Assembly: GCA_031291905.1 (NCBI GenBank)
Contig: JARLIC010000137.1
Coordinates: 51,762-115,761 of the forward strand
Origin: Minisyncoccota bacterium
Lineage (GTDB): Bacteria; Patescibacteriota; Minisyncoccia; UBA6257; 2-01-FULL-56-20
Length of the DNA stretch: 64,000 bases
Direction of reading: 5' to 3'
The notes below the pieces were generated by a model. The model had not been told where the DNA came from. It did no database searches and saw only the letters and a program-made list of their open reading frames with translations. Every line of letters starts with the position of its first letter. Within the stretch, counting starts at the first letter, position 1. Positions 12,455-64,000 of the stretch are shown piece by piece. A program made the translations under genes and the position numbers.

Positions 12455-12561
12455 GTTCTACAGGCCCACCGCCATACGGGGAGGTTGTCATGGATGTGAA
12501 GAAAGCGGGGAGGAGATGCGGGGGCGGCTGAAGCCGGAGCCCCGCTGAACGAACGCGGGCG

Positions 12562-13020
12562 TCACTCCTCGTAGCGGACGCCGCCGATGCAGTTGACCTG
12601 CGCCGTGGTCGTCACCTTGAGGCCGAGGATCGTGCCGCCGGGGACCATGTCTTCCTGGCCCGGGGGCAACGGGTAGATGACCAGGCCGCCGAAGACCGGG
12701 ATCGGATAGACGTGCAGCACGTCGCCCGAGGTGGGAGCCCCGGTCTGCGTGTTCTTGCTGACGGCCTGGAGCACCTCGCCGACGCTCGAAGGGTCGTTGA
12801 CCTTCTTGGGGGGGACGCTAGTGTTGGTGAACGAGCCGCCGGCCTGACGCTCGACGACCAGCGTGCCCGGCGCGTTGGCACTGTTGGTGCCGTCGAAGCC
12901 GACCTCGTAGCCGAGGATGCGGAGCCTCTGATTGGGGGGAGCGACGAGCTGCATCACCGTCAGGGTATTGGCGTTGATGTTCGCCGTGGTCCAGGTCGCG
13001 TAGCCGATCAAACCAGCCAT
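12562..13020 (-). CDS. hypothetical neck/tail structural protein
   Basis: ORF 12562..13086 with internal start MAGLIGYATW at 13020. Confidence 0.45.
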   Translation of the reverse strand: MAGLIGYATWTTANINANTLTVMQLVAPPNQRLRILGYEVGFDGTNSANAPGTLVVERQAGGSFTNTSVPPKKVNDPSSVGEVLQAVSKNTQTGAPTSGDVLHVYPIPVFGGLVIYPLPPGQEDMVPGGTILGLKVTTTAQVNCIGGVRYEE

Positions 13021-13165
13021 GATGTGGAACCTCTTGATATGCGGAGGGATGGGAAAAGGCGGGGAACGAACGGGCCGAGGCTCCACGTTGGAACTGGCCG
13101 CCCGGCACGCCCGTCGAAGACGGGGTGTTTTGGAAGTGGGAAGGGGAAGTGGAGGCGAAGCCGCC

Positions 13166-13912
13166 TCAGTCGGGATGGTAGTACTGAAAAGGGATGGGCA
13201 CGACGACGGGCCGGCGTGGGGGGAGGACGATGGCTCCGCTGGCGTTGACCAGGAGGTCGTCCATGAACACGCGGCTCGACGTGTTGTTCGCCTGTGCGGC
13301 GAACCCGTAGTAGCCGCCCGACGTGATGTCCGAGGCGGTGAGCGACGAGATCACGTTCACGGAAGTCGGCTGAAACGCACCGCTCGAATCCATCGTGTAG
13401 CCGTCGCTCATCCGAGTGAGAGTGACGTTGAAGATGTTCAGGCCGTACGTGACGACGCGGATCGCGTACCAACTGCCCTGGATGAGCGAACTGTCAGAGT
13501 TGGTGACGGACGCCAGGGTTGTGACCGTGCCGTTGACGATCTTGTCGAACTGGAGGTGAGCCCCCGTGAACGCGTTGTTGTACGCCAGATTCACCCAGTA
13601 GGCCGACGTGGTCGAGTTGTCCATCGTCGCGGCCGAGCACCGCATCGTCGGCCCGACCTTGTACAAGCCGACCGTCGCCGAGGAAGTGACGTAGACCATG
13701 CCCGTCAGGTCGAACGTGGCGCCGGCGCCGGGGTCGGCGATGCCGCTGGTCGCGTAATATTTGGTTCCCGCCGTGCCACTCGACAGCACCAAGCTGTTCG
13801 GCGACGAAAAGAATTGAGCGGCCGACGTGACCATCCCCGCGTCGTTGTTCCAGTTCGCCGGGATCGCGGGCGGCGTGACCGAGTCCCAATTTCCAACCAG
13901 AGAAAACGCCAT
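13166..13912 (-). CDS. Ser/Thr-rich structural protein
   Basis: 248 aa, very S/T/N-rich and beta-rich in composition. Confidence 0.5.
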   Translation of the reverse strand: MAFSLVGNWDSVTPPAIPANWNNDAGMVTSAAQFFSSPNSLVLSSGTAGTKYYATSGIADPGAGATFDLTGMVYVTSSATVGLYKVGPTMRCSAATMDNSTTSAYWVNLAYNNAFTGAHLQFDKIVNGTVTTLASVTNSDSSLIQGSWYAIRVVTYGLNIFNVTLTRMSDGYTMDSSGAFQPTSVNVISSLTASDITSGGYYGFAAQANNTSSRVFMDDLLVNASGAIVLPPRRPVVVPIPFQYYHPD

Positions 13913-23190: not shown

Positions 23191-24690
23191 TTAGGAGCCG
23201 AGCGAAAGCTGGACGAAGGGGGACGTCTTGTAGATCACGCCCGAGGGGGACGTCGACTGACGCGGCCCCATCCACAAGGACTTGCCGTCGTGGCGCTGCT
23301 TCCAGCGATACGCGATCTGGTCGGTGTCGAAGAGGAACTGTTCGCTGATCGCGACTTCGATGCCCGAGCGGTTCGCCACGCCGTACTGCGTGGGGTCGAT
23401 GAGCATGATGTCGCCGGTGCCCGAGACCTCAAGCTTTTCGGTCGTGAAGCGGATCGGCAGGCCGAGCAGGGTGCCCGCAGCCTGATACCGCATGCCGGCC
23501 GACTTGGTCCCGGCGATACTGGAAAGCATCGCGGCCTGGGTGATCTGTGAGTTGGGCTGGAACGCAAGGGTGGTGCCGTCGCGGACGTTAAGAAGTTGAC
23601 TGTAGGTCGCCTGGTGGGCGATGAACATCGCGTTCTTAAGACATGACATATCGAACAAGGCCAACATCGCCTGGAGGTCGGCGAGCTGGATCTTGTTCTG
23701 CAACAGGCGGGTCGCCGTGAGCAACGCCGGGCTCTGGCGGATTCCGGTCGGCTTGCCGGCTCCGTCGCCGTTCAGGAACACGAAGTCCGTCTTGTACGCC
23801 ATCGCCTTCAAAAAGAGGCTCTGAAGGACGGTGGCAGCCGAGATGTAGTTGTCGGCGACGAGGTCGCGGGAGATCTGCGTGTAAGCAGTCTGGTCGACGA
23901 TTTTGTACGTGATCTCGCGAAGCTTCGCGTCGGAAGCCTGGCGTTGGGTCGACTCGCCCTTGTAGAAGACCTGGATGCCGGCGGTCGCCGACGTCTGGCC
24001 GATGCCGGGGGCGAAGTACTGGTCCAGGGCGGGCCAGTGGACTTCGTTGGTCGCCCCGACCGGGATGTTGAAGGCGTACGGCTCGATCAGCGACTCTTCC
24101 ATCGCGATCTCGTTGTAGCCTCCGAGAATCTCCGGCTTCACGAAGTAGCCATAGGCGGAGCCGCCGGAAAGCGATTCACTGCCGGCGCGAGCGACGGCGG
24201 GCGACGCGGTCGACATGGAGCCGTCCCATGTCCGCTCCAGCTTGAAGTGCTCGACGAGCCGCTGGTCGGCGTGGTCGCGTTCGCCCTGAGACGCCGACGG
24301 GCGGGTTCGATAGAGCAGCCCGAGGATTTCGCCAAGGCCGCGACCGATCGCCTTGCCGTCCACGCCGCGATCGGCGGGGGATTCGGTGTGCTCGATCGTC
24401 CCGTTGAACGGAACGCCGTCGTCATCGAACTCCATGCCCTTGGACGGAGGGCCTTTACTGGGCTTATTGCCGCCGCTCTGGAGCGAACGCTTGAGGTCTT
24501 CAAGCTCCTTCGTGATCCCGGCGGTGGCGTCACTGAGTTGGCTGCGGACCATCGCGCTGACGTGGGCCTGAGCGTCGGATTCCTCGGCGAATCCGTACTC
24601 GATGTACCCTCGTGCGACCTTCTCGTCCGCGATATCGATCACATCGCCGGCCTTGTGCTCGTCGATGTTCTTCTTGAGCTTCACAAACAT
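23191..24690 (-). CDS. HK97-fold capsid protein paralog with N-terminal coiled-coil (delta-like) segment
   Basis: DLVADNYISAATVLQSLFLKAMAYKTDFVFLNGDGAGKPTGI matches the HK97 major-capsid signature. Start MFVKLKK at 24690. Confidence 0.7.
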   Translation of the reverse strand: MFVKLKKNIDEHKAGDVIDIADEKVARGYIEYGFAEESDAQAHVSAMVRSQLSDATAGITKELEDLKRSLQSGGNKPSKGPPSKGMEFDDDGVPFNGTIEHTESPADRGVDGKAIGRGLGEILGLLYRTRPSASQGERDHADQRLVEHFKLERTWDGSMSTASPAVARAGSESLSGGSAYGYFVKPEILGGYNEIAMEESLIEPYAFNIPVGATNEVHWPALDQYFAPGIGQTSATAGIQVFYKGESTQRQASDAKLREITYKIVDQTAYTQISRDLVADNYISAATVLQSLFLKAMAYKTDFVFLNGDGAGKPTGIRQSPALLTATRLLQNKIQLADLQAMLALFDMSCLKNAMFIAHQATYSQLLNVRDGTTLAFQPNSQITQAAMLSSIAGTKSAGMRYQAAGTLLGLPIRFTTEKLEVSGTGDIMLIDPTQYGVANRSGIEVAISEQFLFDTDQIAYRWKQRHDGKSLWMGPRQSTSPSGVIYKTSPFVQLSLGS

Positions 24691-24843
24691 GGGGTTCTCC
24701 CGATGTTGTCGTGGGTGTTGACAACGCTCGGCGCGGCGAATCTCCAGTCCGCCGGGGAGTCCGCCGCATCTCGAAGACGGGTCGGGCCGGGAACCTGATT
24801 GCTCGTGCGCTGACACGAAACAAAAACGTGTATTAAGATGTCG

Positions 24844-32886: not shown

Positions 32887-33318
32887 TTAGGCGCCGACTT
32901 CGGTCCAGCGTTCGTCGTCCCAATCGCTCGTCATCGCCTCGTAGGTTCCGTCGTGCTGGGCCGGCGGCGGCGGCTGGATATTGTGCTTGGCCCCGTAGAT
33001 CGCCATCGCACGAACGACGAGCGGCGGCGGATTGCCGGTGGTCGCGGTCAGCGTGTCCCACCACTGGTGCGGGCCGTCTCCCTCGATCGCGACCTGGCGG
33101 CAGAAGTCGCACCGGAGGGCGGCCAGATCGTAGCGTCGCAGGAGTCGGGTTGATCGCTGTGTCGACCGGGTGCAGCGAGGGCAGGGGGGGCCGTCGTGCT
33201 TGATCACGACCTGGACTTCATCGTCCGGCACGTCGGCTTCGACGGCTTCAATAATGGCGTCTTCGGCATCGCGGGGCTTCGGGGGACGGCCGCGACGTTT
33301 GGTCTCGATCGTGCTCAT
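32887..33318 (-). CDS. basic zinc-ribbon protein (KRRGRPPKP; CPRC...CDFC)
   Basis: Overlaps the TerL stop by 4 nt. Confidence 0.45.
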   Translation of the reverse strand: MSTIETKRRGRPPKPRDAEDAIIEAVEADVPDDEVQVVIKHDGPPCPRCTRSTQRSTRLLRRYDLAALRCDFCRQVAIEGDGPHQWWDTLTATTGNPPPLVVRAMAIYGAKHNIQPPPPAQHDGTYEAMTSDWDDERWTEVGA

Positions 33319-35864
33319 GCTACCTCTATGTCCGTGTCATGCCACGAGTCGGGCCACCAGCGGGGGTCTTGCCAATCTTGCTGGGCGGCTCGATCTTTTT
33401 CGATCTTCTCCAGCCACGCCCGCTCCAGCCGTTCGCGTTCCATGCGTTCGCGTTCTTCGGGGGGGATGGCGGCTGGGCCACGCTTCTGGACTTCAAGAGA
33501 GGCGTAGGCGAGCACGTCGACTGTGTCGTCGTGGGCACCGTTAGGAAAGGTCATCAACTCGGTTTCGAGGTTGTCGAGTTCCGGGTGATGCTTGGGAAAC
33601 CAAATCTGACCGGCTTCCATGCGTATCTGGGCGTCTACGCTTCGGGCTATTTTATCGACGTTCCCGGTCTTGAGCGACTGGATCGTCAAGCCTTGCTTTC
33701 GAGCCGCTTTAATGACTAGGTTTTGCGCTGCAACATCTTCGATTCCACAATACGACGCCTTGTGCTTGTCCATCATCGCACGAATAGACGGGACGAGCTT
33801 ATCGCCGGTCATCTGTTCGCGATGCATGTCAAGAAGAATCAGGTCGCTGTCCGGCGTCACAGCCCACGCGCCGATGCATGTGTAGTCCGCACTGGTTCTT
33901 GTAGAAAATGCGAGGTCTACCGCCAGGAAAATTCGGCAGTGATCGAGGCTGAATGATCGTGTTTCAAGCCTGATGTAGTTTTCGTGCCGATCATAGTATT
34001 TGAAATCTGATCGCCGAAATAATCCACCACCCTCGGGGGAGGGGCGTTGCTGATACACAGAATTAAAAAGATGTTTTTGGGTTGCTTTGACACGAAGCAG
34101 GTATTCTTCGTTGAAGTGCTCGGGCCAGAGGGCTTCGCCTCGCTTGCGTCCCATCGGATCGTTATCTTCGGCCAAAGCCGGAAGATTATAGACGACCCAT
34201 TCCTCGCCCGTCTCTTTCGCTCGATCCAGGATCTTGCCGACCATGTCGGCTTCATGCCACCTCTGCATGACGACGACGATCGACCCACCGGGCTCAAGCC
34301 GCGTGTACGCGGTTCCGACGTACCAGTTCCAAGCCTTCTCGCGAAGCGTCTCGCTGAACGCATCCTCTTGCTTCTGGACGTCGTCAAGCACAAGTAGGTG
34401 CGCTCCCTTCCCGAGCAACGCGCCCCCCATGCCGACGGTCTGCATTCCGCCGCTGTGGCCCTTGAGCATCCAGCGATCGGCGGCCTTGCTATCCTGGCGG
34501 ATCTTGACTCCGAAGTATTTCTCGCCGTCCTCTTCGATCAGGTCGCGTACCTTGCGTCCCCACTCGGAAGCGAACTCAGCCTCATACGACGCCAGGATCA
34601 CTTTCTTGTCCGGGTTCCTCCCCAGATACCACGCCGGGAAGTACATCGACGTCATTGTGCTATTGCACGTCGGAATCATCGAGCGGCCACACAAAAACAT
34701 GTGGCTCGGTGAGTCGACTTCGATGCAAACAGTGTCGCCGGTTCCGACGTACGTGGCGCCGATGTATCGGTTCGGCTGCTTAACGCCGTCGCGACATCGC
34801 GGCGACTTCCGAGGCGACTTGCAGGCCCCTGCTTTATAGAACATGACGCGGAATTTGGGTCCGCAATCTTTTCCATAAAGCGTAGCTCTTCCAAGTATCA
34901 GGCTCGCCTTGGTTCCGAGTGAACGAACGAGTTCAAGGCAGCCTTCAGCCAATGCTAGGTCTGTCGAGCAAAACTCGACCTGGCCATCCGGAGCGACATG
35001 GCCATCCGTGTCGCAAAGCCCACGAAGCAACTCAAACCTTTGGCTCTCGCTCGCTCGCAGGTATTGGTTCGGGACATGCTTGTTCTTCAGCAGGCCGAGT
35101 TCGCGAAGCTTTCCGCCAAGGCCCATGACCCCAAATACGTTTTCGACCGACCGATCTCTCGTCTCGTAGCCGAGCCGCGAAAGTTCTTCCTTGAACCACT
35201 CAGTATCCAGGCCGTTGCACGTGATGCCGCAGTTCTCGGAGCAGCCGTTTCCAAGCCAAACACCGAGGACGTACGGGTCGATCGGCAAGTCGGCATCGGG
35301 AAGCTGAAGTGCCCCCTGCTTGCGGACCATAAGCCTCTTGTTTCGAGGCTTCGAGAGATAGGCGGTGTCTTTGACGTGGAATATATCGCGAGTCTTCGCC
35401 TTGCTGACGACCCACTCGTGATTTTGGTCGGCGAAGATTTCATCGCCGTCGTCGGTTGTTACTCGGTAGATCGGGCGGTTCTTCCAGACGGGAGACTTTG
35501 CCACAACGTTACAGGGCTGACCGTCTTCATTAAAGACCTGATCGCCCGGCTTCAGTTCCCCTATCGTCGTCCAGCCGGAAGGCGTCGGGATCGGGGTGCT
35601 CAGGGCTAAGGCTTTCCCGTGCCTCGGTGGCACCGTCACAATTAATCGTTTGATCCGGCCCTCCGCCACATCCATCATCTTCTGCGTCAAGAAGAGAAGA
35701 TGTTTCGCCGGCTTCCACTGAAATTCGCTCGAAAGATGTGCATAGTGCGCGGGGCTCAGGTTCGCTATATGCTTCTCTAGGCTGAATCGCTCCTGCGAGT
35801 TGAGTGAGGCCGCCAAGGAGCGTAAGGACTCGATCTGTTGCGGCGTCTCCATTGAGGTGATCAA
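33315..35864 (-). CDS. terminase large subunit interrupted by an intein
   Basis: N-terminal ATPase region runs through the Walker A up to VTVPPRHGK. It resumes as STMTSMYFPAWYLG.. after ~317 inserted residues. C-terminal RNase-H-like nuclease (FLAVDLAFS...DSDLILLD). Confidence 0.85.
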   Translation of the reverse strand: MITSMETPQQIESLRSLAASLNSQERFSLEKHIANLSPAHYAHLSSEFQWKPAKHLLFLTQKMMDVAEGRIKRLIVTVPPRHGKALALSTPIPTPSGWTTIGELKPGDQVFNEDGQPCNVVAKSPVWKNRPIYRVTTDDGDEIFADQNHEWVVSKAKTRDIFHVKDTAYLSKPRNKRLMVRKQGALQLPDADLPIDPYVLGVWLGNGCSENCGITCNGLDTEWFKEELSRLGYETRDRSVENVFGVMGLGGKLRELGLLKNKHVPNQYLRASESQRFELLRGLCDTDGHVAPDGQVEFCSTDLALAEGCLELVRSLGTKASLILGRATLYGKDCGPKFRVMFYKAGACKSPRKSPRCRDGVKQPNRYIGATYVGTGDTVCIEVDSPSHMFLCGRSMIPTCNSTMTSMYFPAWYLGRNPDKKVILASYEAEFASEWGRKVRDLIEEDGEKYFGVKIRQDSKAADRWMLKGHSGGMQTVGMGGALLGKGAHLLVLDDVQKQEDAFSETLREKAWNWYVGTAYTRLEPGGSIVVVMQRWHEADMVGKILDRAKETGEEWVVYNLPALAEDNDPMGRKRGEALWPEHFNEEYLLRVKATQKHLFNSVYQQRPSPEGGGLFRRSDFKYYDRHENYIRLETRSFSLDHCRIFLAVDLAFSTRTSADYTCIGAWAVTPDSDLILLDMHREQMTGDKLVPSIRAMMDKHKASYCGIEDVAAQNLVIKAARKQGLTIQSLKTGNVDKIARSVDAQIRMEAGQIWFPKHHPELDNLETELMTFPNGAHDDTVDVLAYASLEVQKRGPAAIPPEERERMERERLERAWLEKIEKDRAAQQDWQDPRWWPDSWHDTDIEVA
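34662..35612 (-). mobile_element. intein with LAGLIDADG homing endonuclease inserted in the terminase P-loop
   Basis: Hint N-blocks ALALSTPIPTPSGWTTIGELKPGDQVFNEDG and ..IFADQNHEWVV. Two LAGLIDADG motifs: YVLGVWLGNGCS and LLRGLCDTDGHV. C-terminal block ..VCIEVDSPSHMFLCGRSMIPTCN followed by S. Confidence 0.7.
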
Positions 35865-46217: not shown

Positions 46218-47329
46218 TTACTTATTGATCGGCATAACAACATACGTATAATTTTCGCCCGACCTGAACACCACCGCGTTCTTCGGGTCCAGCAAATCCA
46301 CCGTCAGGACCGTATCCATCTCCAGTGACCGCAACGCTTCGACGACGTACTGCGGGTCCATCGTCAGCGACATTCCATCCCCATCGAAGCCGCCCAGCAA
46401 AGGCAACTCGATGCACGATTGGCCGACGTCTGAGGCGTTGCTGGTCAACTCCACGCCATCGGACGAGAACTTGAACGTGACGCCCCGGCTTTCCTCGCTG
46501 GTCACGATCGAAGCCTGTTGCGTGGCCGACAAGAACGACGCCACGTCCAGCGGGATCGTGTACGTCGAGCTTTTGGGAAACACATCCTGATATCGCGGGA
46601 ACCGGCCTTCCACCAGCCGACTGTAGATCACGCTGTTCGACGACCGAACCACGACCGCAACGCCCTTAAGGAAGGCGACGTGAATCTGATCGCCGTCGCC
46701 GGACAGAGCCTTGTCGATCAGCTTCAGAGCTTTGACCGGAAGAACGCATTGCGAATCGTCCACGTCGCCGACCCGCTCAGCAGGAACCGTGGCTCGTGCC
46801 AGACGGCGGCCGTCGGTTCCGACGAACGAGACGCTGTCGTCCGCCCGTTCGACCAGGACGCCGCCGAGAGCGTATCGAGCCGAGTTCAGGTCGGTCGCAA
46901 AAGCCGTCCTCTTGATCAGCTTCTTCAAGTCCGAGTCGATCAGGACCATGTACGATTCGCTGTCAAACCCGGCTGGCTCGGGGAACAAACTTGGTTCTTC
47001 GTTCGGCAGGTTGAACCGTGACCGCTTGCCCCGGATCAGCAACTTGTCATCATCGGCTTCGATGCTGATCTCGTCGTCGATCGACGTCCGCAGGATTTGA
47101 CTGACGCGGTCGGTCGGCAGGATAACATGGCCGTCTCGATCGAACTTCACGCCAAGCAGCGTCCGCCGCACCCCGACTTCCAGATCCGTCGCGATCAATG
47201 TGCATTCGTCGTTGTCGATGACAAGTTTCACGTTTTGCAGGATCGGCTTGGGTGATCGAGCCGGCACGACGCTGGCGACCGTTGTAAACGCTTCGAGCAA
47301 GGCTTTTCGGTTGAACGTCGCTTTCAAGG
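46218..47329 (-). CDS. dnaN: DNA polymerase III beta subunit (sliding clamp)
   Basis: N-terminus KATFNRKALLEAFTTVASVVPARSPKPILQNVKL....LIATDLEV and C-terminal YTYVVMPINK are present. Likely TTG start at 47329 with GAGGTGG upstream. Confidence 0.8.
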
Positions 47330-47815
47330 TTCCACCTCGTGTGTCGGGCCATCTGATAGAAAGGTAGCCATCTGGTAATAGAACTTCTCTCGCCCCTCGA
47401 AGTCGTCTTCGACGGCGCATGCTTCGACCTTGCCGGCGTCCAAAAACATCGCCGCCGCACAGCCAGCCTGATCGATTTCGAGGTATACAGTGCGGTACTT
47501 ATGGGATTCGGTGTGTTTGAACATCATGCCGATTCCACCCTGGACGCAAGGTGACAGCCGCGTCAGGAATTGCATTCCTGGGTATTCAGCGAACAAGAAG
47601 TACTGAGCGACATCCAAAGCTTCCAGCGTCGGCGTCGGTGCGTCATATCCGTCCCACCCTGGCTTGAGCATCGTCAGCTTCACGAGCTTGGATTTCCAGT
47701 CGATCACGCTTCCCCTGACTCCCTCTGATCTCGATCCGCAAAAAACGTCTCGTAATCTGCTTTCGTCAACGACAGCAACTCGTCGTCCGGCATGCTGGCG
47801 AGGTAGGTGTTCCAC
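47324..47815 (-). CDS. hypothetical protein
   Basis: ORF. Confidence 0.35.
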   Translation of the reverse strand: MEHLPRQHAGRRVAVVDESRLRDVFCGSRSEGVRGSVIDWKSKLVKLTMLKPGWDGYDAPTPTLEALDVAQYFLFAEYPGMQFLTRLSPCVQGGIGMMFKHTESHKYRTVYLEIDQAGCAAAMFLDAGKVEACAVEDDFEGREKFYYQMATFLSDGPTHEVEP

Positions 47816-49304: not shown

Positions 49305-49574
49305 CACGTCTCCCCTTAGAATTTGCATTCAGGTAAGAAGATTAGATATGGCTAAACCAAATACTAAAACCTAATCCTTCGGAGTCAAAAAGACAATACT
49401 TCGCACGGCCAGCGTGCCCGAACCTTCTTTATATAGGGAATCCATCAAAGATCGTGAATGCAAGCGGCCGATTGTCTTGCTTTGCTAAAAATCTTGCAAT
49501 CTGTCTTGACGTTCGGAATAAACGGCGGTAGGATCTGGCTCGGGCGACAAGAACGTTGGAATGGCAAGGAGAAC

Positions 49575-50741
49575 ATGCGAATGAGTGAGCTGATCGTGGA
49601 GGTGTGCGAAGTACTGGAAGTCCTGCCGCATGGGAATGCGGATCGGCTTGAGATCGTCACGGTGAAAAATTGGCCCGTGGTTGTCCAGAAGGGCCTTCTC
49701 AAGCAAGGCGATCCCGTCGTTTTCTTTCCGCCGGACAGCGTCTTGACCGAAGAACTGGCCGATCGGCTCGGCATCCGGAAGTACCTCGCCCCGGTCAAGA
49801 CCGGCGAATCCGTCACCGGCTATCGGGTCCGGGCCACTCGGCTTCGCGGTGTCGCCAGTTTCGGGACGATCGACCATGAGATCCCGGAAGGCTTCGCGGT
49901 CGGGGCCGACGTGGCGGAGCACTACGGCGTAACGAAGTGGGAGCCGCCGGCACGGGGTGGCGACAATTGGGCTGGCGGAGGGCTCAAGGGCAGCCAGTAT
50001 CGCGTCACCAATGCGGCGTTCCACCGATACAAGAGCATCAGCAATATTCGGCACAATCGCAATGCGTTCAAGGACGGCGAGATGGTCGTCCTCACGGAGA
50101 AGGTCCACGGCTCCAATATGAGGTCCGGCCTCATCAAGACGCCGTACGACCCCGGAACCGGCTTTATTGGTTTCTTGCGGCGGATTTACTGCCGGGTGTT
50201 CGGTTCGCCGGAGCCGACCTACGAGTTGATGGCCGGGAGCCACAACCTTCCTCGCGACGTCTATAGCGAAGACGGCAGCCTCACAGAGTACGCCCTCCCG
50301 ATCGGCGAACCGAACGTCGTCGGCCTGCTCAAGTACCTGAGCAACGGCGAGCACGACGTCATCCTGTTCAGCGAACTGTTCGGCAGCGGCGTCCAAGATA
50401 TGACGTATGGCCACAAGGACGGCAGTCGTGGCTTCCTGGCCTTCGACATCACGATCGACGGACGATATCTGGACGCGGTTGAGAAGTACGACCTGCTGTC
50501 CCGCTATCAGGTACCGACCGTCCCCGTGCTTTACACGGGACCCTTCTCATGGGATGTCGTCGAAGCCTATACCGATGGCCCGACCACGATCTGTGATCCC
50601 AAGGATGCCGGCCCGTTCAAGGGTCGCGAGGGCGTCGTCGTGACGTGCTTGACGGAGCCTCGGGACTATCCAGGCCGGAAGATTTACAAGTCGATTTCGG
50701 CGGATTATTTGGCCCGGAAGAATGCCACGGATTCCCACTGA
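49575..50741 (+). CDS. ATP-dependent RNA ligase (Rnl family) with N-terminal tRNA-binding-like OB domain
   Basis: N-terminus EVLEVLPHGNADRLEIV...GDPVVFFPPDSVL resembles the HPNADkL tRNA-binding domain. Ligase motif I LTEKVHGSN matches Rnl EKIHGTN. Later EGVVV and KIYK fit motifs IV and V. AAGGAGAAC upstream of the ATG. Confidence 0.65.
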   Translation: MRMSELIVEVCEVLEVLPHGNADRLEIVTVKNWPVVVQKGLLKQGDPVVFFPPDSVLTEELADRLGIRKYLAPVKTGESVTGYRVRATRLRGVASFGTIDHEIPEGFAVGADVAEHYGVTKWEPPARGGDNWAGGGLKGSQYRVTNAAFHRYKSISNIRHNRNAFKDGEMVVLTEKVHGSNMRSGLIKTPYDPGTGFIGFLRRIYCRVFGSPEPTYELMAGSHNLPRDVYSEDGSLTEYALPIGEPNVVGLLKYLSNGEHDVILFSELFGSGVQDMTYGHKDGSRGFLAFDITIDGRYLDAVEKYDLLSRYQVPTVPVLYTGPFSWDVVEAYTDGPTTICDPKDAGPFKGREGVVVTCLTEPRDYPGRKIYKSISADYLARKNATDSH

Positions 50742-57963: not shown

Positions 57964-58098
57964 TGCATGAGTCCCGACGCCACAAGATCCTGGCCCGCAT
58001 CGAGAAGCGGAAGTGGCCTGAAGGCGACACTGCCTACATTCACCCTTTCTACTTTCCCGGCGTAAAGTCGAAGACAATAACGACGTGGGACGAGTTCT

Positions 58099-58530
58099 GT
58101 GTCGCGATGGGAATCGAATCGAAACTCAGGGAGCCAGAGATTGAGTATCCTGACCGGAATAAGTCCGTCCCAATGGGAGCGAGACCATATCATCGCCGTA
58201 AGGCAGGGCGTTAAGTACATCGCCGAGCACGATGCTGTGCCGGACACACCGATGTGGGACATGCTGGTTCATCGTCACGAGATCAATACCGCGAGGTTCG
58301 ACCACTACCATCACGTCGTCGGCAACGCTCTCGAAGAACTAGCCAGGCGACGCCTGACCGAATTCACCTGCCCGCCGCCCTACGACCACAAAGCCCCGTG
58401 CATCCCGTCGATCGAATGCCGGCCCGAAGTCCCGCTCCATCCCCAGGTCGTGCCTGAGCCGGGTTCGGTGATCAGCCTTGTTATCGGGCTCGTCCTATTG
58501 ATGGCTTTTGGCGTGAGGAGGATGCGATGA
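58099..58530 (+). CDS. hypothetical protein with C-terminal TM segment
   Basis: VISLVIGLVLLMAFGV. Start uncertain. Confidence 0.3.
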   Translation: MSRWESNRNSGSQRLSILTGISPSQWERDHIIAVRQGVKYIAEHDAVPDTPMWDMLVHRHEINTARFDHYHHVVGNALEELARRRLTEFTCPPPYDHKAPCIPSIECRPEVPLHPQVVPEPGSVISLVIGLVLLMAFGVRRMR

Positions 58531-58877
58531 GCACGTTCTACGCGAAATCCAGCAAGGTCGACGCGGTGCAGTGGTTCAAGGAAGGCGATCATCCCGACGT
58601 CTATATGCTCGGCGGCGACCCGTACTTCAAGACAGAAAACTCGGTCGTTCCTCAAGACGTGAATCCTGGGGATTGGATCGTCACGCCGCCGAACGGCAGG
58701 TCGATGCTTTGTTCGCACGAAGAGTTCAATGAGGCGTACGGCCAAGAAAGCGATTCCATCAAAGCCTTCGCCAACCACGTCCGCGACGTCAGCAGCGAGT
58801 TCTCGTCGGTCCACGGCAAGCGGTTGATCGTCGTCGATGAGAGCAAACTGAAAGCGTTCCTGCAAGCAACGGAGTAG
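58527..58877 (+). CDS. hypothetical protein
   Basis: ORF. Confidence 0.35.
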   Translation: MSTFYAKSSKVDAVQWFKEGDHPDVYMLGGDPYFKTENSVVPQDVNPGDWIVTPPNGRSMLCSHEEFNEAYGQESDSIKAFANHVRDVSSEFSSVHGKRLIVVDESKLKAFLQATE

Positions 58878-58881
58878 AGCG

Positions 58882-59496
58882 ATGGCCGCAAAGACCACCA
58901 GGATCAAGAGGCTGACCAAGAAGAAGAAGGATGAGGCTGCGAAGAACGTCCCGTTGGCCAAGCACATCGCGAAGAAAATGGGATGGCGAGATCTTCCGAT
59001 GGAGGATCAGATCCAAGAGGCGTCCGTCGGCCTGTGCAAAGCGGTGAACGGATTCGATCCATCCAGGGGAACGAAGCTGAGCACCATGATCGGCCGATGT
59101 GCGATGAACGAGATCTTGTCTGCGAGGCGGAAGTACGGTTTGATCCGGATACCAGACTACCTCCAAGAGAAAGCGAACGCCGAACACGGCCTCCAGAAGC
59201 ACGTCAAACAGGCCGGAAAGCGGCTCAGTATCGACGGGATATCGGAGGACTCGGAATTTCATCCAAGGTGCCCCGAAGACGACGACTCCGAGTTCGGCTG
59301 GAAGGCGATGCGGGCGGTTCGATGGGCCGTCCAGAAGCTTCCGCCGATCGAGCGGGACGTGATTCGCGGGCTGATGTTCCGCCAGGAAACAGCCCGCGAA
59401 CTGGGCAAGAAGCACGGCGTCCACGTCTCGGTGGTGCGTCACCTGAAAGACACAGCCTTGGCGAAGTTGCGAGCGAGTTTGGTTAAGCACGTGTAA
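58882..59496 (+). CDS. sigma-70 family sigma factor
   Basis: Region 2: PMEDQIQEASVGLCKAVNGFDPSRGTKLSTMIGRCAMNEI. Region 4: IERDVIRGLMFRQETARELG...VSVVRHLKDTALAKLR. Confidence 0.75.
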   Translation: MAAKTTRIKRLTKKKKDEAAKNVPLAKHIAKKMGWRDLPMEDQIQEASVGLCKAVNGFDPSRGTKLSTMIGRCAMNEILSARRKYGLIRIPDYLQEKANAEHGLQKHVKQAGKRLSIDGISEDSEFHPRCPEDDDSEFGWKAMRAVRWAVQKLPPIERDVIRGLMFRQETARELGKKHGVHVSVVRHLKDTALAKLRASLVKHV

Positions 59497-59511
59497 ATAA
59501 CTGGGGGCGAC

Positions 59512-60072
59512 ATGGCCAAAAAGAAGCCGACCGCGAAAGGATTGATTCCCTTTGACCTGCCATTGAATGAGGAACAAAAAGAACTGGCGGCGTCGTGCGA
59601 GAGGATGGTGGTGAACATAGCGAAGAAGTCGGCGAATCGGAACAACAACTTCGACGACCTGATCGACGCCGGGCAGATGGGCCTCATACGAGCCGCCCAG
59701 ACATACGACGAGGCGAAAGGTGCGTTTTCGACGCACGCGTATCGGTGGATTTTAGCGAAAGTGCTGAGAGCAAGACATGAGCTAAACAAGAACAACGCCA
59801 GAAAGGATTACGCATTCGACGTGCGGAATCTTCCGTCTCGCCCGGCCGAAGACACCTGGTTTGACCCAGATGTCGTATTGCAAGCCTTCGACTCCCTTCC
59901 CAGGCAACTTCAGGACGTTGTTCGACTCAGGGTCTGGGATGACGACGCCAAGAAGCTGGATAAGGTCGCCAGGCGGCTGGGCTGCGTAAAACAAACGGTC
60001 TTAACCCGCCAAGCCAAGGCGTTCGGAATCCTCCGCGACACGCTCTGGCGATACGCACGGGAGGCTTCATGA
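59512..60072 (+). CDS. sigma-70 family sigma factor (second, adjacent)
   Basis: Region 2: FDDLIDAGQMGLIRAAQTYDEAKGAFSTHAYRWI. Region 4: LQDVVRLRVWDDDAKKLDKVARRLGCVKQTVLTRQAKAFGILR. Confidence 0.75.
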   Translation: MAKKKPTAKGLIPFDLPLNEEQKELAASCERMVVNIAKKSANRNNNFDDLIDAGQMGLIRAAQTYDEAKGAFSTHAYRWILAKVLRARHELNKNNARKDYAFDVRNLPSRPAEDTWFDPDVVLQAFDSLPRQLQDVVRLRVWDDDAKKLDKVARRLGCVKQTVLTRQAKAFGILRDTLWRYAREAS

Positions 60073-60422
60073 CCAACTCGTGCCCCGGCTGCCGATCAAC
60101 CAAGGTCCAGCCCGTCTTGTCGCTACATGTCGGCTGGCGGGTCTTGTGCTCCGGGTGCTTGATGATGGGGCCGATCGGCGTGGATCAGACGGACGCGGAG
60201 AACAGGTGGAATAGGTTGCCACGAGTTTCCGATTTGGACGCCGAGATGAGGTATTTGTTCGATGTGATCAGTGCTGTCGCCAGGGGAGCCCATGACGACG
60301 AGCAGATGGAGTTCAGGACAAGTCTGAGCGGCTCTTGGATGACGGTAGGCGGCATCCGAAGGGCTGTTGCTCAGTGGAAGAATCTGCCTCGTGCGGAATA
60401 CGCTATTGAGGAGCTGCCATGA
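60069..60422 (+). CDS. Lar-family-like restriction alleviation protein
   Basis: SCPGCRS......(x12)...CSGC..MGP.....DAENRWNRLPR. Confidence 0.55.
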   Translation: MTNSCPGCRSTKVQPVLSLHVGWRVLCSGCLMMGPIGVDQTDAENRWNRLPRVSDLDAEMRYLFDVISAVARGAHDDEQMEFRTSLSGSWMTVGGIRRAVAQWKNLPRAEYAIEELP

Positions 60423-60703
60423 GTATGACCCTGCACCAGCTCGCCGACGAGCTTCTGGAGATCCGCCGCTACGTGCGGAGCCACCCAAAGCACGTCAAGG
60501 AGCGAATGGCTGTGATTAACGATCGCGACATTGTGAATGTCGGGCGGTATCACCCATTCCATAGAAAACTGAAACGAATGGCGACCAATGTCAACGCCGG
60601 TCTCGATCGCATCGTCGTCGACCCCGAGATCCTCGAAGGCTACCTCTACGGGGCCGCCGCCGAGATTCGTGAACTCGCTATAAAGCTGGAAACTACAGGA
60701 TGA
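60419..60703 (+). CDS. hypothetical protein
   Basis: ORF. Confidence 0.35.
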   Translation: MSMTLHQLADELLEIRRYVRSHPKHVKERMAVINDRDIVNVGRYHPFHRKLKRMATNVNAGLDRIVVDPEILEGYLYGAAAEIRELAIKLETTG

Positions 60704-60718
60704 TTCGGGGGCCTGGAG

Positions 60719-61018
60719 ATGGGCTGGAGAGAACGCAATCGGCCACCGGGCTTCAGGCATCTCAAGCGAGTCTGGTGCAAATACCTTGAGCGGCTTATCT
60801 GGCGGGAATCGGGCGCTTGGCGTGGCAACAACAGAAGCTATCGCGGCTGGGTCCGCCACATGAGAACAACGGCGGAAATTCGGGCCTACGACCCAGAGTT
60901 CTGCCGAGCGAAACGAAGCCCGCACCGACTGCCGGATGTTCGCGACGGCTACTGGCGGCGGAATCAGAGATGCTGGAAACGATTCCGGTCCTCGCAGTAC
61001 AAAATGAGGCCGATGTAA
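60719..61018 (+). CDS. basic Arg/Trp-rich small protein, paralog 1
   Basis: MGWRERNRP...DPEFCRAKRSP...WKRFR. Confidence 0.45.
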   Translation: MGWRERNRPPGFRHLKRVWCKYLERLIWRESGAWRGNNRSYRGWVRHMRTTAEIRAYDPEFCRAKRSPHRLPDVRDGYWRRNQRCWKRFRSSQYKMRPM

Positions 61019-61039
61019 CAATTAGGAGGTAGGCGATTC

Positions 61040-61246
61040 ATGGCAAAGGCAATGGATATCACGGGGCAGGTTTTTGGTAGGCTAACTGCCGTGAGCCGGC
61101 TTGTTGGCCCAAACATTTCCACCGTCAGCATGGACCACGCCGTCGAGGTCGCCCAGGCCGCACGGCTGAAATTCATTCGGGATAACGAAGGCAGGCTCAG
61201 CTACGATCCCGACTGGCACCTGAAGAATCGTTTCGCGGAGGAATAA
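61040..61246 (+). CDS. small protein with GQVFGRLTAV motif (resembles N-termini of phage HNH/AP2 endonucleases)
   Basis: 68-aa ORF. Confidence 0.35.
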   Translation: MAKAMDITGQVFGRLTAVSRLVGPNISTVSMDHAVEVAQAARLKFIRDNEGRLSYDPDWHLKNRFAEE

Positions 61247-61250
61247 TCCA

Positions 61251-61523
61251 ATGGGCTGGCGGGACAAGAATCAGCCCCAGAACGGCAGTCGTTGCTGGCA
61301 CGCCTACGGATGCCTCAACAAGTTCATGGGGCGAAAGTGGGCGAGCGGAAACTACTATCGCCATTTCCGCGTCATGCGAATCCTGAAGGCTTGCGATCCC
61401 GAGTTCAACAGGCCCGGCCGAAGCTATCGCCAGACGCCGCATCCTTGGGACGACGTCTACATAAAGTGCCAGAAGACGTGGAAGAAATTCCGCAGAACCA
61501 GATGGAAACCCAAACAAACATGA
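61251..61523 (+). CDS. basic Arg/Trp-rich small protein, paralog 2
   Basis: MGWRDKNQP...DPEFNRPGRSY...WKKFRR. Confidence 0.45.
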   Translation: MGWRDKNQPQNGSRCWHAYGCLNKFMGRKWASGNYYRHFRVMRILKACDPEFNRPGRSYRQTPHPWDDVYIKCQKTWKKFRRTRWKPKQT

Positions 61524-61774
61524 GCGAGAAACCAAAGTGTCCAGCGAAATGGACGCTACCTGAAATCATTTGGGCATTGCGTGATATTAAATATCTGGGA
61601 CACGACCAGTGGAAGATGGTCGCTGGCAAGAGCGGTCGAGCGAAGACGCATATCCAAGGTTCTCGCTACGACGCGCTTCTTGACATCGAGACAGCCAGGG
61701 CCGTCGTTGCGTGGGAGAAAGTCCGACGCGGAGACTGGCGGCTATCGGTAGCAGCAAACCCGGAGACATCATGA
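61520..61774 (+). CDS. hypothetical protein
   Basis: ATGA-coupled; start MSEKPKCPAKW. Confidence 0.4.
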   Translation: MSEKPKCPAKWTLPEIIWALRDIKYLGHDQWKMVAGKSGRAKTHIQGSRYDALLDIETARAVVAWEKVRRGDWRLSVAANPETS

Positions 61775-61965
61775 CCACCGGCATCACCAAGGCTGCCCTG
61801 GATCAACTGCCGCCCTTCGAGGCTTGGGTGATCAAACGCCGGCTTGTCGACAAAGAGAACTCGTGGAGGCGACTGGAATCTGAATGCGGTCTAGCCGTCT
61901 ACCGTTTAAAGCAGATCGAGCGTGAGGCTTTACTGAAGTTGTTTAATCCCGAGGGACAAGTATGA
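61771..61965 (+). CDS. small sigma-region-4-like HTH protein
   Basis: ECGLAVYRLKQIEREALLKL resembles a region 4.2 helix-turn-helix. Confidence 0.35.
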   Translation: MTTGITKAALDQLPPFEAWVIKRRLVDKENSWRRLESECGLAVYRLKQIEREALLKLFNPEGQV

Positions 61966-62909
61966 CCCGCCCCCCGATCCCGCTTCTTGCCCCGAACGTC
62001 ACTTGCGGCTTCCCGTATTTCGATCCCGACGTCTTCGAGACAGGCTTGGGCGTCCAGTATTTCAAGGAAGCCGGCGTCGCACTGATCTCGCGTCCTAACG
62101 TGAATATCGCGGCGGCTGCCGGGTTCCTGGACAGCTTTGACGACAGCCTTGGGTTTCGCGAGTACCTGTTCGACCCCGTGAATATCGACGACGGGGCGCA
62201 AGCGGCCAAGTACGCGGGACAGGGGTGCTATCAAAGCTATAGTGCGAAGAGGACCTGGAACAAGGACGCCGGAAGGTATCTCGACCACATCAAGGAGTTA
62301 GGTCACGGCTCCGTTCTTGAAGCGGCCAGTTATGGGTTCCAGTTCTGGGGAGTCGACCGAGCACTTACGCATGAGTTGGTCCGGCACCGGATGCTCAGTT
62401 TTTCACAGACATCGCAACGTTTCTGCGATGACAAAGCGTTGCGATTTGTTGAGAGGCCGGAGTATCAGCCCGAAAGATTGCCGGACGACGCGGGCGACGA
62501 ACTTAAGAGAGATGTCGCGTGGGCAGACACGAAGTTTCAGCAGATCATTAATAGTTTCGTGAGTCATTACGAATTATCCGCCGAGAATCTTGGCTCCGCT
62601 CGCGACCACGGCCATCCGCTGCTTCAAGGCGGCTCGGCGACCGAGAAGCGTAAGCATCTCAATCAGGTCGCGAGAGAATGCCTTCCCAATTGTTGCGAGG
62701 CCCCGATCGTCGTCACCGGCAACGCGAGGGCTTGGCGCGGATTCCTGGACCAGCGAGCCACGCCGCACGCCGACGTGCCGATCCGCGAGTTGGCCATCAA
62801 GGTTCTGAAAGCGTTATTGGTGACGAGTCCATTGTTGTTCGGCGACTATGAGATCGCGAAGCAGGATGATGGAACCGAGGCCGCTACGACCGCCTACCGC
62901 AAGGTCTGA
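61962..62909 (+). CDS. thyX: flavin-dependent thymidylate synthase
   Basis: ThyX signature RHRMLSFSQTSQR (RHRxxxxxxxSxR). Confidence 0.8.
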   Translation: MTRPPIPLLAPNVTCGFPYFDPDVFETGLGVQYFKEAGVALISRPNVNIAAAAGFLDSFDDSLGFREYLFDPVNIDDGAQAAKYAGQGCYQSYSAKRTWNKDAGRYLDHIKELGHGSVLEAASYGFQFWGVDRALTHELVRHRMLSFSQTSQRFCDDKALRFVERPEYQPERLPDDAGDELKRDVAWADTKFQQIINSFVSHYELSAENLGSARDHGHPLLQGGSATEKRKHLNQVARECLPNCCEAPIVVTGNARAWRGFLDQRATPHADVPIRELAIKVLKALLVTSPLLFGDYEIAKQDDGTEAATTAYRKV

Positions 62910-63066
62910 AAGCCATGCCAGAAACCGACCACGCCAGATACATCAGCCTTCTAACCAACCTGTACTCCGGTGCGACGTTGAGCGATAGTGAGCATATCGA
63001 GTTGACGAATTTGCATTTCGCGAATATAGCCAGGGTTGGAAAGATCACCACCGAGGGTGCGGCACC

Positions 63067-63363
63067 ATGAATATCCAAGATTGCAGTTTTCCGGTCAACG
63101 GAGACAGGTTTACTTTCGCACTCGTCAGCAAGGATGCTCACGATACCACTGTCGCCATCAAAGACGCCCGCATTAAGGAACTTGAAGCGTCTCTCTATGA
63201 AGCGCAGTTCGACCTAAAGTACGCCAAGTGGTCGACAGATAATGCGTACGCCGTCGTCGACAAGCTCGGAATTAGGATCGGCAAACTTCGGGTGCATCTC
63301 GCGGCCCGCGACGCCGAGATCGCTGAACTGAAGCTCAGAATCACCAGTGGAGACGCAGAATGA
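63067..63363 (+). CDS. hypothetical protein
   Basis: ORF. Confidence 0.35.
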   Translation: MNIQDCSFPVNGDRFTFALVSKDAHDTTVAIKDARIKELEASLYEAQFDLKYAKWSTDNAYAVVDKLGIRIGKLRVHLAARDAEIAELKLRITSGDAE

Positions 63364-64000
63364 TTCGCTACGGGAAGCGGTTGTCGAAGAAGACGATCTT
63401 CGATTACGTCCAGTGCCGTGACGAGAACAGTCATGCGGATTTCGTGTTCGCCGATCTAGTTCGGCAACTCGAAGAGAGAGAAGAAGAACTCGAAGCGAAA
63501 GACGCGGAACTGGCCGAGGCGGCCGAGCCGAAGGCTTGCGGTGCATACAGGATCGTCCACGAGGACGAGTACGCGGAGCTGAAGCGGCAGGCGAATATCG
63601 GCCGCGCCAAGGAAGAACTCTACTTTCGAGCGATGGACGCCAAGGACGCCGAGATCGATCGATATAAGGGCGCGACGGAACTCGCTGGCAAATTGATCGA
63701 CGACAGGAATTCGATCATCGAATCCAAGGACATGACGATCGCTGACCTTGAACGCGACATGGTCTGCCTTGAGCACGAACGTAAGGCTTCCCGACTGGCT
63801 TCCGGCAAGAACGGAGAAACGATCGGCAAACTTCGTGGGGAAGTTAAGACGAAGGACGCCGAGATCGCGTCCCTGAAGTCCGACCTCCAAGCCGTCGTTT
63901 TTGAGAGCGAATCGCAGGCGGCCGAGATCATCCGACAGCGAGACGAGGCCAGGGCCGAACTTCGCAAACTCCAGCGTCTCCAGAGCAGCGAGTCCACCTA
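63360..64000 (+). CDS. coiled-coil protein with repeated KDAEI(A/D) heptad-like units (3' partial)
   Basis: ATG at 63360 overlaps the previous stop. No stop before the window end. Confidence 0.4.
   Translation, partial: MIRYGKRLSKKTIFDYVQCRDENSHADFVFADLVRQLEEREEELEAKDAELAEAAEPKACGAYRIVHEDEYAELKRQANIGRAKEELYFRAMDAKDAEIDRYKGATELAGKLIDDRNSIIESKDMTIADLERDMVCLEHERKASRLASGKNGETIGKLRGEVKTKDAEIASLKSDLQAVVFESESQAAEIIRQRDEARAELRKLQRLQSSEST

Follow-up and report, generated by a model that had tools for sequence, protein, structure and literature searches.

Two small basic paralogues of a tailed phage as short forms of a rare protein family with a candidate nucleic-acid-binding core

Two small, very basic proteins, here termed mini-A and mini-B, are encoded on either side of a 68-residue open reading frame (ORF), ORF68, at positions 60719-61523 of a 64,000-nucleotide stretch of DNA assigned to a Minisyncoccota bacterium (contig JARLIC010000137.1 of assembly GCA_031291905.1, positions 51,762 to 115,761 of the forward strand; hereafter the window). 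What are these two proteins, how did they come to stand side by side, and what could the residues that they share be doing? The window is part of a tailed phage, and its minus strand carries genes for a large terminase and a major head protein. The first-pass annotation of the locus took the outer two proteins for paralogues and the middle one for an HNH-like fragment. Mini-A and mini-B are short forms of a rare phage and mobile-element family of the phrog_12793 type, which is catalogued but functionally blank.

All three ORFs lie on the plus strand in the arrangement first proposed: mini-A (60719-61018, 99 residues, isoelectric point 11.6), ORF68 (61040-61246, isoelectric point 6.7) and mini-B (61251-61523, 90 residues, isoelectric point 10.5, with a GGAGGA ribosome-binding site). 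The GC content at third codon positions (GC3) is 0.68-0.74 across the three ORFs (0.69 in mini-A), the same as in neighbouring genes, and fits genuine coding frames. The frames and start codons of the mini-proteins are confirmed by protein-level conservation in distant relatives. The motifs pointed out at the start are all in place: MGWRERNRP in mini-A and MGWRDKNQP in mini-B, DPEFCRAKRS and DPEFNRPGRS, and WKRFR and WKKFR. Arginine plus lysine, put at about 25 percent of both proteins, makes up 28% of mini-A and 24% of mini-B; tryptophan makes up 7% of each, and the net charges are +20 and +17.

Mini-A and mini-B are true paralogues. They are 33% identical from end to end (E 2e-11 in BLASTP with composition adjustment), and their Smith-Waterman score of 130 compares with 33.7 +/- 6.4 for 5000 shuffles of mini-B, none of which scored as high (z = 15); a similarity of composition only is thereby excluded. 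At the nucleotide level no repeat was found between the two genes beyond the first 26 nucleotides. No other MGWR gene is present in the window; a chance MGWRD occurs inside a sigma-factor gene at 58882-59496. Mini-B pairs with the protein P0001 of another phage (79% identical, 69/87), where P0001 adjoins a ThyA/DHFR gene. Mini-A pairs with P0002, P0003 and P0005 at ~50-55% identity (P0002 ~55%), both in the distance tree and by pairwise scores. Since each has closer relatives elsewhere than the other, the two are old paralogues or genes acquired separately.

The family was delimited by several searches. Word-index searches retrieved first 3 and later 13 homologues, none of them named and every one from an environmental phage contig; a further search with a 149-sequence profile contributed few additional proteins, none with an informative name. 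An exhaustive hidden Markov model search, with a profile of mini-A, mini-B and three homologues as the query, yielded 334 clusters at E <= 1e-3, of which 19 reached E <= 1e-10. Mini-A itself is absent from protein collections because the gene caller of the public assembly missed it: window positions 58040-64000 are 100% identical to a public metagenome contig, whose stored gene calls omit mini-A and an 84-residue ORF at 61520-61774; that ORF is missing from the collections too. Pattern scans of the metagenome_contigs and genome_contigs collections with a five-sequence alignment gave no confirmed locus. Mini-A, mini-B and ORF68 had no usable match in Pfam, PHROG, NCBIfam or PADLOC scans; in PADLOC the level of E <= 0.1 was reached neither by these three nor by their neighbours nor by three fused relatives. 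The family as such has no counterpart in Pfam, NCBIfam or PADLOC. Neither the region as a megablast query nor mini-A as a tblastn query matched anything in 50,697 phage records.

The core shared by mini-A and mini-B was found in only seven of these cultured-phage records, belonging to large phages of Ochrobactrum, Sinorhizobium, Brevundimonas or Xanthomonas, or to an unassigned faecal contig, with tblastn E values for family members down to 6e-5; all the proteins concerned are annotated as hypothetical. Alignment of profiles by hhalign joined the mini family to a set of long forms at 99.3% probability (E 3.6e-20), including phiOC_p081 of Ochrobactrum phage vB_OspM_OC, the ORM_20, Phosso and XaC1 proteins, and five metagenomic ones. 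Long and fused forms match phrog_12793, whose function is uncharacterised, down to E 4.5e-9, and 6/15 short forms match it weakly. Compared directly with PHROG models, mini-A and mini-B had no match at E <= 1; they are tied to phrog_12793 by profile and transitivity, since their relatives match the PHROG model.

The cultured members of phrog_12793 (phiOC_p081 of vB_OspM_OC, ORM20_00239, Sinorhizobium phage Phosso gp382 and XaC1_183) share with the window proteins a core of ~55-65 residues with R, E, L-P, W-D-D and W-K...R...Q motifs, and like them are encoded in early/middle, non-structural gene regions. The cultured long forms, of 143-184 residues, carry an extra N-terminal domain of ~80-110 residues, whereas the window proteins consist of the C-terminal module and a 9-residue leader. 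Literature searches on phrog_12793, on small basic Trp/Arg-rich phage proteins and on the cultured phages with long forms, together with the comparative paper on jumbo phages PMC7824862, yielded nothing on the family.

The core comprises ~55 residues and three conserved stretches, R-H-P-R-T-T-Q-E-R-R, R-A-K-R-S-P-x-N-L-P-x-x-W-D-D and S-W-K-x-x-R-K-T-Q-Y-K. In mini-A it spans residues 43-95 (GWVRHMRTTAEIRAYDPEFCRAKRSPHRLPDVRDGYWRRNQRCWKRFRSSQYK, 60845..61003, plus strand), as delimited by column conservation among 149 family members. In mini-B it spans residues 33-86 (GNYYRHFRVMRILKACDPEFNRPGRSYRQTPHPWDDVYIKCQKTWKKFRRTRWK, 61347..61508, plus strand), as delimited by the alignments and the conservation table. 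Among the 149 members, numbered as in mini-A, W86 and K87 are invariant (149/149), R46, E53, R63, R66 and R90 are kept in at least 95%, and L71, P72, D76, D77 and Q93 are found in most. The conserved acidic residues E53, D76 and D77 point to a small fold of definite shape and not to a simple arginine-rich peptide. Zinc binding by the mini-proteins was considered and ruled out, as the positions of their cysteines and histidines are not conserved.

Mini-A retains every conserved core residue except one. It has RHMRTTAEIR for the helix motif R-x-x-R/K-T-T-x-E-x-R, CWKRFRSSQYK for the C-terminal motif S/C/T-W-K-x-x-R-x-x-Q/R-Y/W-K, and RAKRSPHRLPDVRDG for the central motif R-A-K-R-S/N-P-x-x-L-P...W/Y-D-D, in which glycine takes the place of the second aspartate. 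Mini-B has TWKKFRRTRWK at the C-terminus and RPGRSYRQTPHPWDD in the centre, with leucine changed to threonine. Its helix motif reads RHFRVMRILK, so that V-M-R-I-L-K stands in place of T-T-x-E-x-R; the glutamate, present in 143/149 members, is replaced by isoleucine in mini-B and is also missing from its orthologue P0001 (RHLHIMRILK).

The core occurs in several architectures. It is found alone in proteins of 57-66 residues; behind an N-terminal M-G-W-R-E-R-N-x-P-(V-P-G) extension in proteins of 85-100 residues, the type seen in the window; at the C-terminus of proteins of 143-202 residues; at the N-terminus of proteins of ~180-200 residues ending ...TWWSDKDIGIEYIL; and at the N-terminus of proteins of ~140-160 residues with an RRDHFH.EHRWC partner. 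The leader M-G-W-R-E/D-K/R-N-x-P of the short forms corresponds to the F-R-x-G-P-V-P-G segment preceding the core in longer relatives. The module is portable, occurring alone, with an extension, or fused at either end to unrelated uncharacterised domains. Its hosts are diverse and include phages of Alphaproteobacteria and Xanthomonas and one Planctomycete genome.

Structure prediction for mini-A by AlphaFold was unconfident with 15 sequences (mean predicted local distance difference test score, pLDDT, 55). With 149 sequences the model reached pLDDT 82 and a predicted template-modelling score (pTM) of 0.44, with a beta-hairpin at residues 14-32, a helix at 51-56 and short helical turns at about 64-66, 74-76 and 86-89. 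No structural neighbour of the mini-A model was found among known folds. According to the model, the fold would be either new or not globular on its own, and these results fit a small, possibly partner-dependent fold.

From its chemistry, conservation and genomic context, we propose that the core is a nucleic-acid-binding module, a reading to which we give a probability of about 40%; the context makes us lean weakly towards RNA over DNA as the ligand. Such a module could act as a portable binding or targeting unit, contacting nucleic acid through its invariant arginine and lysine residues and the invariant tryptophan. Expression of the stand-alone copies would come early or midway in infection, from the gene cluster with the sigma factors and ThyX, and tandem paralogues may have diverged to recognise different targets.

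The N protein of phage lambda and the Nun protein of HK022 are ~100 residues long, very basic, largely unstructured alone and encoded by early operons, and they grip RNA or nucleic acid with arginine residues and a stacking tryptophan. The window proteins are alike in chemistry, and we draw a functional analogy here, with no claim of homology. Unlike the linear arginine-rich peptide of the N type, the window family has conserved acidic, proline and leucine positions and a confident deep-alignment model. N-type regulators are not known as tandem paralogues or fusions.

In the phage loci examined, family genes lie among non-structural clusters of the early/middle type, near genes for sigma factors, ThyX, ThyA/DHFR, ribonucleotide reductase, thymidylate kinase, gp32/gp59 and helicase. 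Some of the neighbours are related to RNA. An RNA ligase gene is found no more than two genes from a family member in two loci (L024 and L029), a DHHA1 phosphoesterase gene overlaps the end of a family gene in a third (L026), the family gene of Brevundimonas phage Kikimora adjoins a tRNA array and a metallophosphatase gene, and in Phosso a peptidyl-tRNA hydrolase gene lies ~3 kb from the family gene. RNA ligases, phosphoesterases and tRNAs belong to the RNA-repair toolkit of large phages (PMC7824862).

Several observations weigh against nucleic-acid binding. No homology or fold link connects the module to a known nucleic-acid-binding domain, the pTM of the mini-A model is low, and the high positive charge would equally suit an acidic protein surface. 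Mini-B may not act as the canonical members do because it has lost the near-invariant glutamate of T-T-x-E-x-R. The RNA-repair context is seen in a minority of ~15 loci, as raw counts without a background rate, and neighbours from nucleotide metabolism and replication are equally frequent as those related to RNA. In L034 (3952-5183), a tyrosine-recombinase (Phage_integrase) gene has its stop codon overlapped by the 60-residue stand-alone core P0162, and the locus resembles an integrative element. In the metagenome scaffolds L031 (7001-8348) and L032, the family member, attributed by one source to a metagenome-assembled genome of Thermoguttaceae, has an ordinary chromosomal neighbourhood.

The position of P0162 in L034 is reminiscent of small recombination-directionality or regulatory genes. 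The Thermoguttaceae member, P0168, is a fused protein of 180 residues found on 18 contigs; in L031 and L032 it lies with an adjacent 262-residue gene among genes for a CLC channel, CstA and a glycoside hydrolase, with no phage genes in view. In Brevundimonas phage vB_BpoS-Kikimora, an unannotated family ORF (...FRHPRTMQERRRN...RGRRKHLPSSWDDI...SWKDF.RHRKQW; L017 ~2950-3190 on the plus strand, ~228480-228720 of the record) lies opposite the annotated coding sequence KIKIMORA_03730, directly after the large tRNA array, and phage Gurke has the same match; the deposited KIKIMORA_03730 annotation is probably on the wrong strand. At L026 9024-12779, and also in L027 and L028, at least nine tandem DUF6197 paralogues of ~100 residues each are found on a phage contig with a 63-residue stand-alone core.

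Could the module bind protein instead? On this reading the stand-alone copies would be small proteins that inhibit or modulate an acidic target in the host, for instance RNA polymerase or a sigma factor, a site on the ribosome, or a defence protein, and the tandem paralogues would reflect an arms race. We consider this plausible though doubtful. It is in keeping with a cluster that holds two sigma-70-family genes, a mini-protein like sigma region 4 and a Lar-like homologue, an association repeated in the relatives L001-L003, and with the lineage-specific tandem amplification typical of host-interaction genes. Fusions to varied partner domains also suit a targeting module, and an unconfident shallow-alignment model is common among partner-dependent binders. 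However, no similarity to known anti-sigma, RNA polymerase inhibitor, anti-restriction or anti-defence proteins was found. The near-invariant positions are mostly arginine, lysine and tryptophan, which is more typical of nucleic-acid contacts than of a host-variable protein interface, and the spread of the family over phages whose hosts differ widely speaks for a ligand common to all of them.

A more specific form of nucleic-acid binding seems unlikely to us: that the core is a previously undescribed RNA-binding fold, possibly for tRNA, which phages and mobile elements use as a portable targeting module to repair RNA or to counter host systems that cleave it, with tandem paralogues recognising different RNAs. 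It is compatible with the lack of a match in Pfam or among solved folds and with the RNA ligases, phosphoesterases or tRNA arrays that adjoin the module at several loci. Ribosomal-type small basic proteins of phages (bS21) are alike in size and charge, and no ribosomal-protein profile matched the family in a Pfam scan of 15 members at E <= 10. The sole ribosome-related signal concerns the W-K-x-F-x-R-T-R-W tail: residues 67-86 of mini-B (61449-61508, DDVYIKCQKTWKKFRRTRWK) resemble the C-terminal extension of the Trypanosoma brucei mitoribosomal protein bS6m, DIYTQLEMNWKEFSRTRWS. Among PDB sequences, the 15-sequence profile matched none and the 149-sequence profile only bS6m, at a non-significant E of 0.28, and the resemblance is probably due to chance.

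Phage T4 encodes its internal proteins ipI-III as paralogues in a row, and the extreme basicity of the mini-proteins, their occurrence as several consecutive copies and the conserved N-terminal nonapeptide of the short forms would all suit packaged internal proteins that neutralise the charge of capsid DNA or are injected with the genome, the MGWR... N-terminus being a targeting or cleavage signal. This is very unlikely, as the mini-genes lie amid regulatory and nucleotide-metabolism genes, far from the head module on the other strand (terminase at 33315-35864, head protein at 23191-24816). In many members the N-terminal segment is absent, or the core forms the C-terminal end of a larger protein, so a cleavable N-terminal signal is not family-defining, and members also occur in a bacterial chromosome and an integrase element.

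ORF68 was described as an HNH-like fragment on the strength of its GQVFGRLTAV motif. The motif is present, within the 16-residue N-terminal segment MDITGQVFGRLTAVSR (61052..61099, plus strand), the only part of the protein that resembles zinc-ribbon/HNH phage proteins, and the description is borne out in part only. Residues 5-20 are the only ones with any match (phrog_374, 'HNH endonuclease', E 0.016, limited to residues 1-22), and residues 21-68, 48 in all, match nothing. For the strand motif G-x-x-F-G-R-L-T-V/A, ORF68 has ITGQVFGRLTAVSR, 14/16 identical to an HNH-type protein of L019, which in turn finds the six-frame window by tblastn only through these N-terminal 16 residues (E 0.002). Elsewhere the shared leader, D-I-T-G-Q-x-F-G-R-L-T-A-V-S-R, is followed by a CxCxCG...SCGC zinc ribbon and sometimes then by an HNH domain; in our own reading of the 204-residue L019 protein, it is followed by a cysteine ribbon and an HNH_3-like D-R-I-D-N-D...N-C-R-W motif. 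It also heads a 77-residue zinc-ribbon 'transcription factor' of Bacillus phage LY3 (vB_BceP_LY3) and a 212-residue protein of Acinetobacter phage HFM1. All these comparators carry the ribbon, whereas ORF68 contains no cysteine and lacks the W-x-C-x-C-x-C-G...S-C-G-C pattern altogether, so its likeness to the phrog_374 and LY3 proteins is confined to the first 16-20 residues. It also lacks the HNH (beta-beta-alpha metal) motif, with no HNH match in Pfam or NCBIfam, and no AP2 DNA-binding domain was matched in Pfam at E <= 1.

No further HNH or zinc-ribbon remnants were found around ORF68 in any frame, nor a second gene of the G-x-x-F-G-R-L-T type in the window. A likeness of the ORF68 segment 'AVEVAQAARLKF' to AP2 C-termini has the support of no search. 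The derived idea of an internally deleted AP2/HNH protein, with an N-terminal strand and a C-terminal 'eeA..aR' helix, was rejected as unsupported. In L020 (1088-2602, plus strand), a 504-residue protein contains at least six G-Q-R-F-G-R-L-T...C-x-C-x-C-G...S-C-G-C repeats, and the leader motif of ORF68 therefore belongs to a repeatable zinc-ribbon module and not to the HNH domain itself. Because of its strong AGGAGG ribosome-binding site and host-like GC3, ORF68 is probably expressed. It is not a nuclease. It is best regarded as a small orphan whose leader is a relic, and is probably what remains, decayed or put to new use, of part of a mobile gene of the zinc-ribbon/HNH type; it landed as a separate gene between the two paralogues.

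The tandem arrays of relatives bear on the origin of the pair. Three copies of family genes stand in a row in L006, three in L009 and two in L007, with spacers of 0-33 nucleotides and no gene between them, HNH or other. The copies of L006 and L009 form separate clades in the distance tree. Tandem amplification has thus taken place more than once, in different lineages, and the duplication behind mini-A and mini-B is unrelated to ORF68. The trio, which was to be looked for in related phages, turned up in no contigs other than those identical to the window, and the same holds for exact copies of ORF68. In the viral contig L006, a 417-residue ORF (12154-13407, plus strand) about 1.2 kb beyond the downstream end of the three-copy array looks by eye like a transposon protein of the TnpB/OrfB type.

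These gene-free arrays, together with the closer relatives of each protein elsewhere, contradict the suggestion of a homing-endonuclease insertion duplicated in place. Some mobile genes do lie near family members: a homing-endonuclease gene directly upstream of the one in ORM_20, an intein/HNH-bearing ribonucleotide reductase gene ahead of the one in L004, and HNH genes 1.4-2.4 kb downstream of those in L009. That such an endonuclease inserted here, duplicated its target gene and left the mini-proteins as functionless remnants is nonetheless barely credible, even with the HNH-type start of ORF68, given that the two proteins are so distant from each other with no nucleotide similarity past the start, that both are intact with the key residues of the family and host-like GC3, and that no further endonuclease remnants lie nearby in any frame.

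As a feature of the window, the trio is ordinary: tandem-duplicated small early phage genes with a scrap of a mobile gene between them. New relative to the existing catalogue are the boundaries of the core, the range of architectures in which it occurs, the lack of a counterpart in Pfam or among known folds, and its recurrent tandem amplification. The result is a compact, highly conserved basic module, represented in 334 clusters, which exists as a stand-alone protein, as tandem copies and in three or more types of fusion. If the module turns out to be a new domain for binding nucleic acid, several hundred dark-matter phage proteins would gain an annotation, and the function of the uncharacterised fusion partners could come within view; the stand-alone forms of 57-66 residues are small enough for direct biochemical and nuclear magnetic resonance work.

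The trio sits in a co-directional, tightly packed cluster of plus-strand genes. Upstream lie two sigma-70-family genes (58882-59496 and 59512-60072; phrog_351, with Sigma70_r2 at E 1.3e-11 for the second), a Lar-like zinc-ribbon gene (60069-60422, 117 residues, with an N-terminal CxxC...CxxC ribbon) and an orphan gene of 94 residues (60419-60703). Downstream follow the 84-residue orphan (61520-61774), a 64-residue protein like sigma region 4 (61771-61965), which matches that region only, and weakly (E 0.011), and ThyX (61962-62909). No Rfam family, tRNA or above-background promoter or terminator signal was found within the cluster, in or near the trio. The product of the Lar-like gene matches the Lar restriction-alleviation family TIGR03655 weakly, below the cut-off (E 0.0021). 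In the relatives L001-L003, a 177-residue Lar_restr_allev protein is encoded a few genes from the mini-protein, and the pair of sigma genes and the 64-residue gene are also present.

Elsewhere in the window, an RNA ligase gene (49458-50741, plus strand; phrog_968, E 8.7e-40) lies 10 kb from the trio, and a sliding-clamp-like processivity factor is encoded at 46218-47420 on the minus strand (phrog_947, E 1.6e-63). The major head protein gene occupies 23191-24816 and the large terminase gene 33315-35864, both on the minus strand. At 849 residues the terminase ORF is unusually long; residues 402-823 match phrog_38, whereas the match of residues 49-301 is to another terminase PHROG, with weak similarity also to primase and DnaC-like loader families. 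A fusion at the N-terminus, an insertion or an over-extended ORF could account for this.

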